A stretch of 64,000 bases of DNA, taken from positions 40,132-104,131 of the forward strand of contig CAZUZL010000001.1 in the NCBI GenBank assembly GCA_964625065.1, in the 5' to 3' direction. Both the position numbers and the translations under genes were made by a program. The first letter of the stretch is position 1, and every line of letters starts with the position of its first letter. This document shows, one piece after another, positions 6,530 through 59,168 of the stretch. The DNA is from an uncultured Candidatus Saccharibacteria bacterium. Lineage in GTDB: Bacteria; Patescibacteriota; Minisyncoccia; Phycocordibacterales; UBA9973. Under the pieces are notes generated by a model. That model ran no database searches and was not told where the DNA came from. It worked only from the letters and a program-made list of their open reading frames with translations.

Positions 6530-6560
6530 AAAAAGTCAGGTATAGCCTGACTTTTTTTTA
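6530..6560. terminator. Bidirectional intrinsic terminator
   Basis: aaaaa-GTCAGGTATAGCCTGAC-tttttttta between convergent genes. Confidence 0.65.
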
Positions 6561-8003
6561 TTTTATAATCCCTATAACCCCATTCCCAAACAACATCACC
6601 GCCATTACCCCATACATACCCAACATTGCCCACAGTGGCAATGGGTAGTTTAGTACACCAAAAGGAACAGAGGCGAATAACATAATAACCCACAACACAA
6701 ACGTTAATAATATAGAAAGTGGAAATGCAAATAAAATAGATAAACTCGGTATAAAAAAACACAACACCAATAAAAATGTTAACCCCATAACCAGTGGCAT
6801 AAGTGGCAGTATTAATACATTGGCCGGTATTGAAACCAAAGACATAGCCCCCATAGTAAATAGTATCAGTGGCAGTACAGCAATATTTGTACCCACTGTT
6901 GTGGCAACCACGTCGCGTATACCAAACTTATCTGTTACCCATAAAAACTTGTGTAGTATTTTGGGTGTTATATATATCAGCCCTATAGTAGCTAAAACTG
7001 AAAGTTGAAATGAAACGTCGTACAGTATTGTAAATGGGTTCATTATACCCATTGCAATAATTGTTAATACCAACACCCTGCCTATATATGTTTTTCTACC
7101 GACAAGTTTTGCCAATATAACAATACCACCCATTATGCCCGCACGTATGGCAGTGGTAGAAGCACCGGTTAATATTACAAATAAAACTATACCAAATATT
7201 GAAACTATCCATGCTACTGTAACAGAAAATATTGCACCCAATGTTGCCAACATGGCTTCGACAACAATGGTAATGTTGTAGCCCGACAGGGCAATAATGT
7301 GTATAGTTCCGGAACGTACAAACTGGTCGCGCAAACCTGTTGTTAACCAGTCGCGCGAACCAACTAATATGCCACGAGCTAAGCCAGACTGCGGTTCGTG
7401 CAAATTGTTGTTTATTTGGTTTTCTATTTTATTCTTTAGTACTGCTAAACGTGCAGTAACATTCCACCTACCTGCTGGTGTGGTAGACAACACTTTTGGT
7501 TTGTCTAATGTTACATATACAAAGTCTTTTTTAAGATACGAAACATAGTCAAATACAGTGTCGTTAGAACCAGTAAAGTTTTCTGGGTATTGAAGTACGC
7601 CAGAAATTTGTACATGTTCACCCACCAACAAATTCCCGCTGTTTATTTTTACTAATACTCGAAATCTTTCACCGACGGGTTGTACTAAAACAGTTTGTAT
7701 ATTATTTTTACCTTCAGCAGTTACTACCCTGCCTGATAATGTTACATTTTTATTTATTGCATCCGTGTACAGAACAGGTATTTTTGGCATGCGCATATAC
7801 GAAACACCATAGCCAAGTAAAATAGACACCACTAAAACGAACGTTAAACCAAAAACTTTTTTAGAAAACTTACCTAAAAACAAAATACAAACCAGACAAA
7901 TAAAAACACCGGCAACTAGGCCGTATGTGTTCTGTTGTGCTGTAAATAAAATAATACCAACTACTGCGCCGAAACTTGTTCCATAAAACAAATTGTCATC
8001 CAT
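6558..8003 (-). CDS. comEC: DNA internalization competence protein ComEC/Rec2 (DUF4131 + competence channel domain, no lactamase domain)
   Basis: Polytopic membrane protein with ComEC competence-domain motifs (…TAIRAGIMGGIVILAKL…). The ORF-track GTG start at 8027 (MALPISNGM) lies inside a repeat; the ATG at 8001-8003 (MDDNLFYG) is preferred. Confidence 0.8.
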   Translation of the reverse strand: MDDNLFYGTSFGAVVGIILFTAQQNTYGLVAGVFICLVCILFLGKFSKKVFGLTFVLVVSILLGYGVSYMRMPKIPVLYTDAINKNVTLSGRVVTAEGKNNIQTVLVQPVGERFRVLVKINSGNLLVGEHVQISGVLQYPENFTGSNDTVFDYVSYLKKDFVYVTLDKPKVLSTTPAGRWNVTARLAVLKNKIENQINNNLHEPQSGLARGILVGSRDWLTTGLRDQFVRSGTIHIIALSGYNITIVVEAMLATLGAIFSVTVAWIVSIFGIVLFVILTGASTTAIRAGIMGGIVILAKLVGRKTYIGRVLVLTIIAMGIMNPFTILYDVSFQLSVLATIGLIYITPKILHKFLWVTDKFGIRDVVATTVGTNIAVLPLILFTMGAMSLVSIPANVLILPLMPLVMGLTFLLVLCFFIPSLSILFAFPLSILLTFVLWVIMLFASVPFGVLNYPLPLWAMLGMYGVMAVMLFGNGVIGIIK

Positions 8004-8191
8004 CCCGTTAGAGATAGGAAGTGCCACATTACAATATATGGAACTTCCTATAATTAGATAATTTATAATATTTCGACCATACTACTAGACCCTACAGGCA
8101 CTTCCGTAATATATTTGATTATATTTACATATTAACATAATTTATTTCTTTATTATATTAAGACAAAATAACATCTGTTATCTCAACGGGA
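8001..8191. mobile_element. 191-bp TIR-bounded repeat element (copy A); its terminal CAT is the comEC start codon
   Basis: Left arm catcccgttagagataggaagtgccac (8001-8027), inner partner ggcacttccgta (8097-8108), shared acatattaacata core, right arm atctcaacggga (8180-8191). Confidence 0.6.
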
Positions 8192-8197
8192 GGCAAA

Positions 8198-8761
8198 CTA
8201 CATAGGGGGCAACCCCTTGAAGAATTCTTTATAATTTTCTTTAGTGCCACGAAACAGTGGTGTGTTGTCTTTGTCTGCAAAACTGGTTGCAATAACATCG
8301 GCACGTTCGTTTAGTAGTACACCTGAATGCCCTGCAACTTTTTTCGTGTGTAAATTTTTACCAAAACTACGCACCAATACCATTAGTGGTTGCCATAGTT
8401 CCTGGTTTAGAACTGGTTTTTTATTTGCAGTTTTCCAACCGTTTTTCTCCCACCCTGCAACCCAAGACCCGATACCGCCTAACACATATGCAGAATCAGT
8501 ATGTACAGTAACAACCACTGTTACACTACGCCCCGCCTTTTTAACTTCTTCCTGGACTGCGCGCAAACTAGCTATAACACCCATCAGTTCCATTCTATTA
8601 TTCGTTGTATGGGCGTCGTGGCCACCTATTTCATAGACATAGTCATGTTCTGCCAATATGCCTGCGTCAAAGCCTATAACAGCCCCGTAGCCCCCTGGAC
8701 CAGGGTTACCGCGCGAAGAACCGTCTGTATATATAGATATATGTTTTTCCTGACTATTCAT
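8198..8761 (-). CDS. rnhA: Ribonuclease HI
   Basis: IYTDGSSRGNPGPGGYG...NNRMELMGVI...HSGVLLNERAD are canonical RNase H1 motifs. Confidence 0.85.
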   Translation of the reverse strand: MNSQEKHISIYTDGSSRGNPGPGGYGAVIGFDAGILAEHDYVYEIGGHDAHTTNNRMELMGVIASLRAVQEEVKKAGRSVTVVVTVHTDSAYVLGGIGSWVAGWEKNGWKTANKKPVLNQELWQPLMVLVRSFGKNLHTKKVAGHSGVLLNERADVIATSFADKDNTPLFRGTKENYKEFFKGLPPM

Positions 8762-8880
8762 CCCGTTTAGAAGCAGGTCGCGGTCAATAGAGCGCTATTT
8801 GCTTGATTATATTTATAAATTAATAATATATTACTTTCATAATTTATGCCCGTTACTGCGACCGCGGCTTCTAACGGGAT
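8759..8880. mobile_element. 122-bp TIR-bounded repeat element (copy C, short variant); its terminal CAT is the rnhA start codon
   Basis: Left catcccgtttagaagc-aggtcgcggtc (8759-8785); right gaccgcggc-ttctaacgggat (8858-8880); AT-rich core ttgattatattta shared with copy A. Confidence 0.55.
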
Positions 8881-8918
8881 TCATGTAAAGATTATAGCAT
8901 GAACATATACATAAATTA

Positions 8919-34263: not shown

Positions 34264-34303
34264 ATGGGTATAATCTAGCATAAAAAATGGGTATAATAAA
34301 GAA

Positions 34304-34733
34304 ATGAGAAACCCCCACTCGGCCTCCCCCTTATCAAGGGGAGGAGAAAAACATCCATTTATACCATATAAAAAAGAACTCCCTGAAAAAGCACGAGAGT
34401 TAAGAAATAATGTAACAAAGGCAGAAGAAAAATTATGGCATGAAGTTTTAAGAAACAAGCAATTTTTAGGATTTAGATTTGTGCGACAAAAGCCATTGAA
34501 ATATTTTATTGCAGATTTTTATTGTGCCAAACTTATGCTTGTTATAGAAGTGGATGGTAGTGTACACAACAAAATAAAAGAACGAGATGCTGAGAGAACA
34601 GAAATATTAAAAGGAATACATAATATAAAAGTGGTTCGATATACAAATGAAAATATTCTAAAAAGAATTGGCTGGGTTAAAGAAAGTTTAGAAAAAGAAA
34701 TTATTCAAAGAGAAACTGAACTTTCACAATAAG
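34304..34733 (+). CDS. DUF559 (Vsr-like endonuclease fold) protein
   Basis: EKLWHEVLRNKQFLGFRFVRQKP...ADFYCAKLMLVIEVDG...ERDAERTEILKGIHNIKVVRY is a typical DUF559 signature. Confidence 0.7.
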
Positions 34734-34780
34734 CAGTTAAATTCCCTCCCTTGATAAGGGGAGGGTTAGGGTGGGGTTTC
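34304..34780. mobile_element. About 480-bp cassette: DUF559 ORF bracketed by ~37-bp imperfect terminal inverted repeats
   Basis: IR-L gaaacccccactcggcctcccccttatcaaggggagg (34308-34344) against the reverse complement of IR-R ccctcccttgataaggggagggttagggtggggtttc (34744-34780); each arm also holds a CCCCTT..AAGGGG palindrome. Confidence 0.55.
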
Positions 34781-34901
34781 TTGTTATTTTGCATACATAT
34801 ATAATGTATGCTATAGTCCATGTATTACCTGTCACTTCTGTGCCAGGCATTTTTATTAAAAATTAAATAATGGGGAGTTTCCCTAAAAACTAAATAAATA
34901 T

Positions 34902-47001: not shown

Positions 47002-47409
47002 CTATAATATCAAATCTTCGTACATTACTACCCTACCGGTTTTGTTTTCCATATCTAGGTACGCACATGCCAAGTCTATATATACCTTTGTTTTATAAGA
47101 CACTTTTCGTTCTAGCAGGTATGTTTCTATGGTGCGTAGCATTTTCCGTGCCTTCATAGGGTGCATGTTTTGGGCTGGGTCGTAACGCATGTATTTAACT
47201 TGAGCCAAATCCCCCACTTTTATGGACTTAACTTCTATAAAATGTATATTGTCGGGTCCATTTGTTACACGAGTAACAATGTCTATCTCGCCCCACTTTT
47301 TAGTGTAGTTGCGTTCTAGTATTTCATGGCCGTGTTTCATGAGGAACGTACAAACTACGTCCTCTCCTATTTCTCCAGTCTTTTGTTTATCTGAAGTAAA
47401 AACCTTCAT
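47002..47409 (-). CDS. YraN-family (UPF0102) predicted endonuclease
   Basis: GEDVVCTFLMKHGHEILERNYTKKWGEIDIVTR...IHFIEVKS; start at MKVFTSD; the ORF-track extension MALPISNGM is repeat-derived. Confidence 0.7.
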   Translation of the reverse strand: MKVFTSDKQKTGEIGEDVVCTFLMKHGHEILERNYTKKWGEIDIVTRVTNGPDNIHFIEVKSIKVGDLAQVKYMRYDPAQNMHPMKARKMLRTIETYLLERKVSYKTKVYIDLACAYLDMENKTGRVVMYEDLIL

Positions 47410-47597
47410 CCCGTTAGAGATAGGAAGTGCCACTACATAACATAGAAAACATTTACTATTCTCGATTTTAATTATAATCTATTCGACTAATTACATATCT
47501 AGCACTTCCGTAGATTAATTCAGTATATATACATATTAACATATTACGAGTGCATGAAACATATAAGCAATTAAGCATCTATAATCTCTAACGGGAT
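47407..47597. mobile_element. 191-bp TIR-bounded repeat element (copy B); its terminal CAT is the yraN-like start codon
   Basis: The 27 nt catcccgttagagataggaagtgccac are identical to copy A; inner partner agcacttccgta (47501-47513); tacatattaacata core; right arm atctctaacgggat (47584-47597). Confidence 0.6.
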
Positions 47598-47989
47598 TCA
47601 CTACTTAACTTCAAAATGTTTCATGAATAACACAAATGTCCGTTTCAGTACCAAAATGATCGAATTCCACTAAAGTGTGCCACGTGAAACATCTTTATGG
47701 CTATATCTAACTAATATAATATGTATTCTAATGTGTATTTTATAAATACCCTTATTTTTATAGGTATTTTAGATTTTTGGGGTATAGTATGACATTTTTT
47801 TGACATGTCTGTATACTGTCTTTTATAAACAATATACACAGACTTATCCACACTTATACACAGTTTTCTATATAAAATATAGGTTTTAATGAATATAAAA
47901 GACGATTCTTACAAGAATTGTGTCGCGCAATGTCCTTTGAAGCGCGACCCGTCAAAAAAGTCTTTAATAAAAAGGGCAGAAAAAAGAGA

Positions 47990-48420
47990 GGGGGGCAAAA
48001 GGGGAATCGGTTGCGATTTTATAACAACAGGGAATCGCCACCTACCGTGGCGAGTGCTTTGAACAAAAAGGGGAATCGGCCACGGTTTGCTGGTATTAGA
48101 AATGCGGAATGGGGATCGGCTTCGCCTCTCACCTCGTCAGTCACTCGGTTCGGGCTAGCCACCGCCTCGCACCCACACTGCTGTGTGGGACCCGCTCCGG
48201 CGTCCGATTCAGAATAACAGGGAATCGCCACCTACCGTGGCGGGTGCTTTTAGTAACAATAGGGAATCGGCCACGATTTGCTGACATTTTTCATCACAAG
48301 TTCGAAAAATACCTAGCAATCCCGGCCCGGACTCGGCGACAAGCATTCCTTGTTACACAGGAATCTTGTATACCGCCTCCGTCTTCCGATTCCCCTATTA
48401 CGCATAAAATAAAATCGCCC
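47990..48420. repeat. GC-rich non-coding block of direct repeats derived from the 3' end of tRNA-Gly(GCC)
   Basis: A composite ~70-bp unit occurs twice (48027-48094 and 48217-48288); core gggaatcgg occurs at least 7 times in gene orientation and once inverted (48395-48413); hairpins cgccac-ctacc-gtggcg and cccacac-tgctg-tgtggg. Confidence 0.55.
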
Positions 48421-48450
48421 GAAGGTATACTTCGGGGTCATTTATTTTTG

Positions 48451-48521
48451 TGCGGAATAGGGGAATCGGACCCCTGTCTCATCCTTGGCAAGGACGTGTT
48501 CTACCACTGAACCAATTCCGC
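48451..48521 (-). tRNA. tRNA-Gly (anticodon GCC), no encoded CCA
   Basis: Acceptor GCGGAAU/AUUCCGC, D-loop AGUGGUA, anticodon loop UUGCCAA; the T-loop UCCGAUU carries an unusual C55; a hairpin cccgaag-uauac-cuucggg plus U-run follows the 3' end. Confidence 0.75.
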
Positions 48522-57917: not shown

Positions 57918-59168
57918 TTAGTCTTTACTGTTTACGTCACCAGTAGAACCTTTTATTGCAAATGAGTTCTTTGCACCGCGGATTTCAAAGTGTAAATGTG
58001 GTCCTGTCGAGTGTCCTGTAGAACCAACATACGCTATTGTTTGGCCCTTGGTTACAGACTGACCAACTGTAACTATGTTAGATGTGTTGTGTGCGTAAAG
58101 TGTTTGTGTGCCGTTAGGGTGTTTAATAGCTAGATATGTACCATAACCACCACCGTATGTACCACGAGAGTCGGCAATAACTACACCGTCTGCTGCTGCC
58201 ATAACAGGTGTACCTTTAGGTGCAGAAATGTCGATACCATTAAATGCGTGTAGACCCTGAGTAACAATACCACCACGAACAGGGAACATGTAGTAACCAC
58301 TGTATTCTGCTGCATTAAAGCCCCAAGTCTTTTCACCCCGTGCACTGCGCATAACAGCGTCGCCAGATTTTGGACCTGATAGATCAAGTTCGCCGGTAGA
58401 TTTAAGTTTATAGACACCAGTACCTGTGTATTTACCCGTTTGAGATTTAGTAGTAGTACCTTTTGCTGTTTTATTTGCAGGCTGGGCGACTGTTTGTTGT
58501 TCACCGTTAGGTATTATTATAACTGTGCCAGGTTCTACAACAGTGTCTACTGTTATACCGTTAAATAGTTCTATGTCAGAGGTGTCTGCACTATATTTTT
58601 TAGCTATAGACTTTATGGTGTCGCCCTTTTTAAATGTATATCGTAGACCAGTAACAGGTAGTATTGTTAGCATTTGGCCTTCCTTAAGGGTGGGGTTTTG
58701 ACTTAGGTTGTTAGCCCAGATAATGGTGTTTGGTGTAACGTCGTATAGGTTTGCCACTGTTTTAATAGTGTCGCCTTTTTTAACGGTATATAAACTAATC
58801 TGGTCTGTATCTGGAACGTACTGTTCTACATCTAAGGCAGTGCCCATAGGGCCCACATCTGTAGACAAAACACCGTCGTCTGACAACATAGTAGTGTCAA
58901 CATCGTCGCCGCCCAAAACAGTAGAAACAACAGTTGATGGGTCGGGTAAAACTAGGGTTTGAGAGTTTTTGGTTATTTCAACCTTGCCTTGGGCGTCTGC
59001 TATTTTGCCTAGAAAGCTAAAAATACCCGCGTGTACGTAGGTCGGAACAAATATGGTTAGAGTAGCTAAAGCAATAAAAGCTTTAGAAATAAGGATTTTT
59101 TGAACAAAGCGGACCAAAAGGGTGGGGGGTACGGTTTCGCCGGTTGTTTGTTTATTATTAGGTAACAT
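57918..59168 (-). CDS. LysM-domain M23-family peptidoglycan endopeptidase
   Basis: Two LysM repeats (YTVKKGDTIKTVA; YTFKKGDTIKSIA) and C-terminal GIDISAPKGTPV...HLHFEI. Confidence 0.8.
   Translation of the reverse strand: MLPNNKQTTGETVPPTLLVRFVQKILISKAFIALATLTIFVPTYVHAGIFSFLGKIADAQGKVEITKNSQTLVLPDPSTVVSTVLGGDDVDTTMLSDDGVLSTDVGPMGTALDVEQYVPDTDQISLYTVKKGDTIKTVANLYDVTPNTIIWANNLSQNPTLKEGQMLTILPVTGLRYTFKKGDTIKSIAKKYSADTSDIELFNGITVDTVVEPGTVIIIPNGEQQTVAQPANKTAKGTTTKSQTGKYTGTGVYKLKSTGELDLSGPKSGDAVMRSARGEKTWGFNAAEYSGYYMFPVRGGIVTQGLHAFNGIDISAPKGTPVMAAADGVVIADSRGTYGGGYGTYLAIKHPNGTQTLYAHNTSNIVTVGQSVTKGQTIAYVGSTGHSTGPHLHFEIRGAKNSFAIKGSTGDVNSKD

Follow-up and report, generated by a model that had tools for sequence, protein, structure and literature searches.

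The UPF0213, YhbQ and prokaryotic Slx1-like proteins (PDB 1zg2 and 1ywl) consist of a minimal GIY-YIG domain without accessory domains, and a survey of the GIY-YIG superfamily in 2006 treated such stand-alone proteins as cellular and ancestral (PMC1564403). They are the closest known proteins by sequence to the product of the element studied here. Three copies of this element, designated A, B, and C, lie in a 64,000-nucleotide stretch of a contig from an uncultured Candidatus Saccharibacteria bacterium (CAZUZL010000001.1, positions 40,132 to 104,131; hereafter the window), each at the start codon of a gene. The copies are very probably non-autonomous, decayed members of a family of very small mobile elements of the Candidate Phyla Radiation (CPR, or Patescibacteria) that carry a GIY-YIG minigene and insert at start codons. 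The similarity to the UPF0213/Slx1-like proteins extends over the whole minimal domain. However, those proteins are treated as genes of the cell with an unknown or repair function, and the literature found reports no ends, duplication, or mobility for them.

Free-standing GIY-YIG homing genes, such as seg and mob of phage T4 and the I-TevI family, are likewise selfish nuclease genes located between host genes that are left functional. Their products contain 200–250 residues including a DNA-binding domain, and they spread by allelic homing through long homologous flanks, with no inverted ends or duplication. In contrast, the present element encodes only a catalytic domain of about 80 residues, has inverted ends and a 4-bp duplication, and occurs at hundreds of non-homologous hosts. 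It shares the GIY-YIG domain and its catalytic residues with homing endonucleases, but no allelic site and no association with introns or inteins is found. In the rRNA genes of CPR bacteria, GIY-YIG proteins are encoded in scattered insertions that are not introns (PMC11270868). These insertions resemble the present element in being CPR-specific, GIY-YIG-encoding, and non-intronic, and in their scattered sites, but by their description they occur in rRNA genes only, and no ends, duplication, or start-codon insertion is described.

MITEs (miniature inverted-repeat transposable elements) and related repeats, including Correia elements (CREE) of Neisseria, ERIC, RUP, and the Rickettsia palindromic elements, are short and non-coding, with inverted repeats and a short duplication. 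They are present in many copies, are co-transcribed with their neighbors, fold into a long hairpin, and arise by internal deletion from a longer coding element. The window copies similarly have terminal inverted repeats, a target duplication with empty sites in relatives, and a small, multi-copy, coding-derived sequence. They differ from MITEs in that the parent is a single-ORF (open reading frame) GIY-YIG unit of ~280 bp rather than an insertion sequence with a DDE transposase, and it contains no recognized transposase, DDE or other. They differ further in being inserted at the start codon itself, where the end base rebuilds ATG or GTG, and in belonging to a family that spans many CPR classes with near-invariant 13-bp ends. 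IS200/IS605 elements and palindrome-associated transposable elements (PATEs) are also very small and have target preferences on a tetranucleotide scale, subterminal hairpins, and non-autonomous derivatives. The present element falls outside the IS200/IS605 family, as it lacks an HUH/Y1 TnpA and a TnpB but has inverted repeats and a duplication, which IS200/IS605 lacks. The full-text literature yielded no description of GIY-YIG minigenes bounded by inverted repeats or of start-codon insertion in CPR bacteria. Conservatively, the element is placed as a selfish nuclease gene accompanied by MITEs, a variant of these known kinds.

Window copies and their empty alleles

The three copies are bounded by 13-bp inverted ends, TCCCGTTAGAGAT and ATCTCTAACGGGA, and each adjoins a start codon. 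Copies A and B are located ~39 kb from copy C (Table 1). A first-pass annotation of the window had reported copy C as a repeat of 191 bp at 47407-47597. The repeat is present at that place, and its boundaries are redrawn here to 188 bp in the minus sense. As reported there, the first 27 nt (CATCCCGTTAGAGATAGGAAGTGCCAC) are common to 8001-8027 and 47407-47433 with no difference, and the inner partner (GGAAGTGC / GCACTTCC) and an AT-rich core are kept between copies. The junction CAT/CCCGTT coincides with the start codon of a long ORF in all three copies, these ORFs encoding a ComEC-like protein, RNase HI, and a YraN/UPF0102 protein. The 27 nt read GTG GCA CTT CCT ATC TCT AAC GGG ATG, which explains why two listed ORFs share MALPISNGM. 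The minus strand at copy C reads ...GTGAA/TCCCGTTAGAGAT...ATCTCTAACGGG/ATGAAGGTT...; because the base before the distal TGAA is now G, the old yraN start codon has become GTG. The hairpin arms of this copy correspond to the LRKR and KRFL codons of intact elements.

The 12-mer end, with at most one mismatch, matches the window four times against an expectation of 0.15, and none of 100 shuffles reaches four. Three of these matches are element ends; the fourth, at 58435, was rejected as a further copy, being a chance match within coding sequence. The window copies fold as long closed hairpins (z of about −4.5 to −4.8). They contain no ORF homologous to the nuclease, and tblastn (E < 1e-3) found no intact nuclease gene in the window. 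Rfam returned four tRNAs only for the window at the gathering threshold, with nothing at the element, and still nothing at the element for 47300-47700 at E ≤ 10. The window strain recurs unchanged in two sequencing runs; exact look-ups of the window RNase HI and of P0253 returned no record.

Close relatives carry empty alleles at all three window positions, which establishes insertion at these sites. The relatives in the assembly collection have an RNase HI that is 98% identical (P0121) and YraN proteins that are 86–98% identical. The rnhA site is empty in all relatives examined (L206-214), where it reads ...GCTATAATCTTTAC/ATGAATAGTCAGG (...CTTTAC/ATGAATAGT). The window allele reads ...CTTTAC-A-TGAA-[TCCCG...119 bp...CGGGA]-TGAA-TAGTCAGG, and the two differ exactly by the element plus TGAA. 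The comEC site is empty in L206-210 (TAGTT/ATGTCAGAC; TAATAT/ATGTCCGAC) and filled in L211-214 by an orthologous copy 92% identical to copy A. The yraN site is empty in L215 (TGTATAATGTGGGG/ATGAAGAAG; protein identity 95%) and in L219 and L220 (TATATAATATATAA/ATGAAAAAG; 92%), and is filled in L216-218 (86%), whose orthologous copy is 88% identical to copy C and has ATGAA on both sides. The element is thus mobile, and its presence or absence is polymorphic among related strains. Copy B is 78% identical to copies in another Saccharibacteria contig (L058).

Table 1. Features of the element copies, their flanks, and their host genes (window coordinates)
Feature	Position	Strand	Remarks
Copy C	47409..47596	−	188 bp; probable decayed, non-autonomous element; L087-type GIY-YIG element minus ~90 nt of the center
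Copy C, gene-proximal 13-bp terminal inverted repeat	47409..47421	−	mRNA sense ATCTCTAACGGGA; its final A forms the first base of the yraN ATG
Copy C, distal 13-bp terminal inverted repeat	47584..47596	−	mRNA sense TCCCGTTAGAGAT
Copy C, proximal 4-bp target duplication	47405..47408	−	TGAA in gene sense (TTCA on plus strand); TG completes the yraN start codon
Copy C, distal 4-bp target duplication	47597..47600	−	TGAA in gene sense (TTCA on plus strand); preceded by G (GTGAA)
Copy C, subterminal hairpin	47422..47511	−	arms ~47423-47430 GGAAGTGC and 47502-47509 GCACTTCC
YraN/UPF0102-family host gene	47002..47409	−	135 aa; true start ATG 47409-47407; PF02021 match; homologues found
Copy A	8003..8191	−	189 bp; same subfamily as C; between rnhA stop and comEC start; flank duplication decayed
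Copy B	8761..8879	−	119 bp; other subfamily, ends TCCCGTTAGAAGC, G+C-rich extended stem; at rnhA start codon
Copy B, proximal target duplication	8757..8760	−	TGAA
Copy B, distal target duplication	8880..8883	−	TGAA; preceded by the original A of ATG and TATAAT-CTTTAC, a leaderless-type promoter
comEC-like host gene	6558..8003	−	true start ATG 8003-8001; Pfam Competence/DUF4131 in relatives
RNase HI host gene (rnhA)	8198..8761	−	start ATG 8761-8759; PF00075

The intact element, its target, and its derivatives

One genome per species, 596 Gb in total, was scanned for the 14-mer ATCTCTAACGGGAT. Single matches are spread over all kinds of organisms, at the level that chance predicts for a 14-mer in this amount of sequence. 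Inverted pairs 69–282 bp apart, among 120 genome hits, were found in CPR bacteria only, including Paceibacteria, Saccharibacteria, Levyibacteriota, and other groups. In a looser search, nearly every copy has, in one orientation, an ATG directly after ...CTAACGGG that opens an ORF of 60–900 codons, and in most copies the ATGNN of the near side is repeated on the far side. A further sample, chosen without regard to the ends, consisted of 80 metagenome loci fetched through two internal peptide motifs of the GIY-YIG protein; both inverted repeats are present in ~70 of these 80 loci. The counts of ends, flanks, and sites given below refer to a pooled set of 149 elements in 129 loci. Looking up one protein with 103 contigs (P0075) for varied contexts yielded a single context.

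Elements of the ~280-bp size class (275–282 bp) consist of one continuous ORF of 85–95 residues, for example MNPVRDQSLMLYVYVIQSEKNEDWYTGYTNNLRKRFNQHNTGKSTWTKERGPWKIIYYEACLDEEDARSRENYLKTGMGKRYLKNRLKRFLSLTG. The ORF contains a GIY-YIG catalytic domain (PF01541, E = 1.2e-17), with no other domain and no recognized transposase found in it. Its nearest solved structure is the UPF0213 protein BH0048 (1zg2; E = 1.5e-9, residues 7–74). Similarity to SLX1 is faint (E = 0.46), and the NCBIfam model of group I intron endonucleases gives 19 bits, below its cut-off of 56. In a 12-sequence alignment, the residues matching the GIY, YIG, Arg, Glu, and Asn motif positions are invariant. A collection of 5.8 billion proteins contains more than 4,600 relatives (90%-identity clusters) at E ≤ 1e-5, all of 85–95 residues; those that are named are labeled 'GIY-YIG nuclease family protein' and come from Parcubacteria or Patescibacteria. 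Clustering at 50% leaves 527 representatives at E ≤ 1e-10, indicating a family that is large but tight. Among the best 120 relatives, most start with MNPVRD or at an internal methionine (MFYxYV), and 92 end in RFLSLTG. The first-pass annotation had suggested looking for a cognate transposase or an IS200/IS605-like TnpB; the cognate gene is instead this 85–95-residue nuclease, which fills the intact element from end to end.

The inverted ends lie within the reading frame. The 5′ end, TCC CGT.., is read as ..T CCC GTT AGA GAT, encoding (M-N)-P-V-R-D, and the 3′ end, CTA TCT CTA ACG GGA, encodes L-S-L-T-G. Pairing between the ends spans exactly 13 positions that are 95–100% complementary, with a complementarity of ~0.3 at position 14. 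Base pairs covary at position 1 (T:A in 124 elements, C:G in 22), position 11 (G:C in 126, A:T in 15), position 12 (A:T in 129, G:C in 9), and position 13 (T:A in 112, C:G in 26), and G:T combinations are rare. In one subfamily, the ORF begins at an internal ATG, passes through the 3′ end in a different frame, and stops at a TAA inside this end (..GASYL*), yet the nucleotides are kept. The retention of the same nucleotides in another frame, together with the covariation, indicates that the ends are conserved at the level of DNA or RNA, not of protein.

The 4 nt flanking the element are identical on both sides in 88 of the 149 elements: TGAA in 57, TGGA in 12, TGAG in 5, TGCG and TAAA in 2 each, and singletons. 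Among the 72 start-adjacent elements with perfect duplications, 70 have an A immediately before the distal copy, so that the site before insertion was ATGNN. In a subfamily with C:G ends (L151, L154, L180, and L192), the proximal junction is ...CGGGG/TGAA and the start codon becomes GTG. The duplication therefore comprises 4 bp (TGNN), and the first letter of the rebuilt start codon is the last base of the element. The rare duplications TGCG, TGAG, TGAT, and TGGA match on both sides and also match the second codon of the host gene; in a few copies (L100, L043, and L115), the distal and proximal NN do not match.

Stop codons were scored in 77 ORF-bearing long elements, one of them a reverse-strand artefact. 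The ORF stops at the TGA of the duplicated TGAA in 47 elements, overlapping the host start as ATGA, and at the TAA of a duplicated TAAA in 9. For ten others the stop is a TAA within the 3′ end, 7 nt ahead of the host start (TAACGGG-ATG). Of the 47 elements stopping at TGA, 25 have a frame that runs open from the host-derived distal start codon, and at least two of these 25 (L100 and L108) have no internal ATG. An intact element thus often has no start or stop codon of its own.

Of the 149 elements, 100 adjoin an ATG, GTG, or TTG that opens an ORF of at least 60 codons, and several of the remaining 49 are located at contig ends or in tandem arrays. The same test in the same loci is passed by 1.7% of random positions and by 16.8% of all TGAA sites, a value that overestimates true starts. 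The coincidence with start codons in the window, for which sampling luck had been considered, is therefore no matter of chance. Elements with a perfect TGAA duplication are at starts in 53 of 57 cases. All 50 intact ORF-adjacent copies share the orientation of the host gene; the automatic orientation test, which relies on the hairpin, is ambiguous for most non-coding copies, and strict co-orientation is claimed for intact copies only. The host genes are unrelated and include TopA-like, TypA, MurG-like, RNase HI, ComEC, and YraN genes. In start-adjacent perfect duplications, the dinucleotide after ATG is AA in 74%, GA in 15%, and AG in 7%, and never begins with a pyrimidine. A rough background from first-ATG ORFs is 20%, 11%, and 7%, respectively, with roughly 35% beginning with a pyrimidine. 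The excess of AA indicates that there is a sequence preference as well.

Target sites in the window (8884-8897) and in two empty yraN alleles (L215:~870-900 and L219:~625-653) have a TATAAT-like −10 box, sometimes preceded by TGn, and no Shine-Dalgarno sequence. The same pattern is seen at many other targets, including those in L060, L088, L115, L007, and L042. This points to leaderless genes as a common feature of these lineages and as the usual landing place of the element.

Copies A and C were aligned to intact elements of the L087 type with MAFFT. They retain the 5′ end and ~95 nt of decayed N-terminal coding sequence, to TTACGGAAGTGC at the LRKR codons. A gap of ~90 nt follows, then ~70 nt of decayed C-terminal coding sequence and GGCACTTCC-TATCTCTAACGGG. 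The inner partner noticed in the first-pass annotation represents the LRKR codons paired with the KRFL codons, and the tacatattaacata core noted there consists of decayed coding sequence. In the ~120-nt class, a bigger deletion leaves the LRKR/KRFL pairing as a tight hairpin. In 25 non-coding copies of this class, each hairpin pair shows 3–10 double compensatory changes. The same deletion structure is found at different genes of one genome, with identities of 72.5% between copies A and C overall, 80% between L028 and L079, and 86% within a pair in L115. The non-coding derivatives have therefore spread as such, still onto start codons.

Tandem and nested arrays occur in L004, L007, L021, L116, L125, L153, and L161, as fits an insertion that re-creates its target on both sides. 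In arrays, including those in L159 and L189, up to three elements lie head to tail sharing ATGAA, and hairpin mini-copies of ~51 bp are nested in others. A mini-copy with a G+C-rich stem is often located directly after an intact copy. Many ~120-nt copies (for example L009:2519-2641, L024, L042, L075, and L115) contain an internal (A)CGGGA(T), 30–50 nt from the 5′ end, that could pair with the 5′ TCCCG. These copies also contain an A+T-rich box resembling AAATTAATTA, 10–20 nt before the subterminal hairpin.

Mobilization and alternative explanations

We infer that the GIY-YIG protein mobilizes the element, because the ORF is co-extensive with the ends, such ends were never seen to enclose another gene, and the orientation always permits translation. 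The upstream TGAA keeps the host's A, promoter, and ribosome-loading signals and could complete the element's own start codon. The terminal A of the element, or G in one subfamily, rebuilds the host start codon with the downstream TG. The downstream TGA usually doubles as the stop codon of the nuclease ORF, and the resulting ATGA overlap is consistent with translational coupling. The host gene behind an intact copy is probably translated by termination and reinitiation. A −10 box lies 6–7 nt before the ATG at many targets, the empty rnhA and yraN sites among them, and the element may therefore often be expressed as the 5′-terminal part of a leaderless mRNA.

Internal deletions produce the ~120- and ~190-bp derivatives, which keep the ends and the subterminal hairpin and are presumably mobilized in trans. 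In decayed copies, a short ORF from the distal ATG stops within ~10–20 codons, and these early stops rule out read-through to the host ATG. Initiation at the host gene behind such copies might involve upstream translation that opens the terminal stem, or a stem that juxtaposes the two AUGs.

Two chemistries can be envisaged. A staggered cut around TGAA, combined with cuts at the ends, would fit the rare duplications that match the second codon of the host. Break-induced copying through ATGAA microhomology would fit the excess of ATGAA, the mismatched flank pairs, and codon 2 of comEC discussed below. Given the affinity to UPF0213 and Slx1 (PMC1564403), the base of the 13-bp stem is a conceivable place for a structure-specific cut.

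Several observations weigh against a start-codon-specific element moved by its own nuclease. The window itself has no intact copy, and the flank repeat of copy A is decayed. Codon 2 of comEC is GAT in the filled alleles (ATGGATGAC; L211-214 and window 7995-8003) and TCC or TCA in all empty alleles (ATGTCCGAC; L206-210). This change amounts to three adjacent substitutions exactly at the element junction and could be due to flank co-conversion at insertion or to ordinary divergence. At yraN, the relatives with 95% and 92% protein identity are empty and those with 86% are filled, a pattern at odds with protein identity that points to clean loss in some lineages or to repeated hits on one site. 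About a quarter of the intact copies are located off start codons, for example that of L131 at a stop codon. Five contigs (L146, L170, L172, L179, and L186) have intact elements inside the 3′-terminal part of an ORF6N-like gene (...EKKYDAQFKVVFDAIR...). The flank repeats at off-start sites are varied or absent, indicating loose target recognition. The start-codon excess could also be due in part to purifying selection in compact genomes. As for the protein, its cutting of the ends or the target is a prediction from sequence. GIY-YIG enzymes are hydrolytic nucleases, and none is known to have strand-transfer activity. Characterized members leave short 3′ overhangs, which do not obviously explain a 4-bp duplication.

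The insertions in the ORF6N-like gene occupy two or three different positions, with no clear flank repeat. The targeting of start codons is thus strong but not absolute. The proposal of ATG-targeted insertion in the first-pass annotation stands in that the element is inserted exactly on start codons, as seen from the empty alleles and in 100 of 149 elements; targeting itself is inseparable from the joint effect of sequence preference and selection. Such selection might bear on hosts with compact genomes or on the element itself, whose translation requires that it land in frame on a start codon. The bias as a whole probably reflects targeting rather than selection alone.

Among other explanations, a homing-like spread survives best, although it is unlikely. 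The nuclease would nick or cut ATGAA-like sites, a donor would be copied in by repair, and the apparent duplication would represent shared ATGAA microhomology. GIY-YIG enzymes are classic homing nucleases (PMC1564403), and the flank repeat is mostly ATGAA, the commonest start context, at the 74% frequency given above against roughly 20% in the background. The NN mismatches in L100, L043, and L115 and the GAT codon in filled comEC alleles (TCx in empty ones), as from flank co-conversion, are also consistent with this mode. However, the rare matched duplications follow the second codon of the host, which is better accounted for by a staggered cut of the target than by copying of donor flanks, and covarying 13-bp inverted ends would have no obvious role.

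It is improbable that the copies are ordinary MITEs moved by a conventional transposase encoded elsewhere, with the GIY-YIG ORF as a passenger or as an unrelated gene bearing the ends by coincidence. Inverted repeats with a short duplication are the classic signature of DDE transposition, and the lack of known strand transfer by GIY-YIG nucleases favors such a source. Yet no larger unit with these ends was seen in ~200 loci, in a search that was not systematic and in which pairing was limited to 330–600 bp. The ORF occupies the full length of the element and takes both its start and its stop from the duplication, the ends accompany ~70 of 80 GIY-YIG genes chosen by motif, and every intact ORF-adjacent copy is oriented for translation from the host start.

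The first-pass annotation favored a portable 5′ leader or initiation module. In such a module, which may include a promoter, an RNA structure or internal promoter that controls the downstream gene would be the reason for its retention. The position immediately 5′ of an ATG, the mostly shared orientation with the gene, and the strong folding of the copies (z of about −4.5 to −4.8) are in line with this, as are the conserved terminal stem and subterminal hairpin with compensatory changes in 25 non-coding copies and a remodeled old upstream −10 box in filled alleles. The idea is nonetheless quite improbable and was abandoned. The host genes are mutually unrelated, and strains with host genes ~91% identical in DNA (86–98% in protein) differ in having the element or not. 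The interior of the element is decaying nuclease coding sequence, so that the copies are derivatives of a coding unit, and nothing in Rfam matches even at E ≤ 10. A sigma-70 scan is empty in copy C and not clearly above shuffles in copy A, and the terminal stem lacks the G:U-tolerant intermediates expected of RNA pairing. A portable promoter as such fails on the same scan, a structured RNA or ribozyme on the Rfam search, which gave four tRNAs only, and an integron attC or dif-like site (GTTAGAG core with an AT-rich center) on the decayed coding nature of the center and on hosts that are housekeeping genes, not cassettes.

The preferred reading, a GIY-YIG minigene family that inserts at start codons, has a broader form. 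The chances are about even that the family represents a new class of prokaryotic DNA transposon, in which a nuclease of ~90 residues is the sole encoded protein. With a length of ~280 bp, it would then be smaller than any other autonomous mobile element known. Lacking a start, stop, and promoter of its own, it would borrow host signals instead and use a TGAA duplication both as a stop and to rebuild a start, and its spread would have covered much of the CPR and left MITE-like derivatives.

Other window features and implications

Several further repeats were observed in the window. A G+C-rich block at 47900-48470, within an A+T-rich genome, is partly conserved upstream of yraN in L215. It contains direct repeats at 48018-48069 and 48208-48259, ~190 bp apart and 85% identical, and the sequence AAAAGGGGAATCGG... 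at 47997, 48066, and 48257. A palindrome of 43 nt (48385-48470) extends into tRNA-Gly(GCC) at 48450-48521. Rfam gave no match for the block at E ≤ 1. A tandem repeat at 1827-2099, with a 15-nt period and ten overlapping 117-nt copies of 60–78% identity, is probably a repetitive coding segment. A 48-nt inverted repeat at 34298-34345 and 34743-34790 is 71% complementary, contains CCCCCTTATCAAGGGGAGG, and encloses 397 nt, possibly as a further insertion bounded by a hairpin.

Gene callers extend host proteins through the 3′ end of the element, giving MALPISNGM... (window 47409-47433 and 8003-8027). They also fuse the nuclease and host ORFs into 'GIY-YIG' proteins of 223–600 residues; extended or fused database examples are P0260, P0262, and P0387-P0389. 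The element thus means a systematic mis-annotation of start codons and N termini in thousands of CPR genes. The copies also represent strain-level markers of presence and absence, and the pairing of a minimal nuclease with 13-bp ends of defined sequence could be useful as a tool. If the nuclease drives movement, GIY-YIG enzymes would join the catalytic classes that move bacterial transposons, and the element would set a new lower size limit for an autonomous one. For its hosts, the element would represent a near-harmless form of parasitism in a streamlined genome, inserting at the start codon, borrowing the host's signals, and passing translation on through the ATGA overlap.

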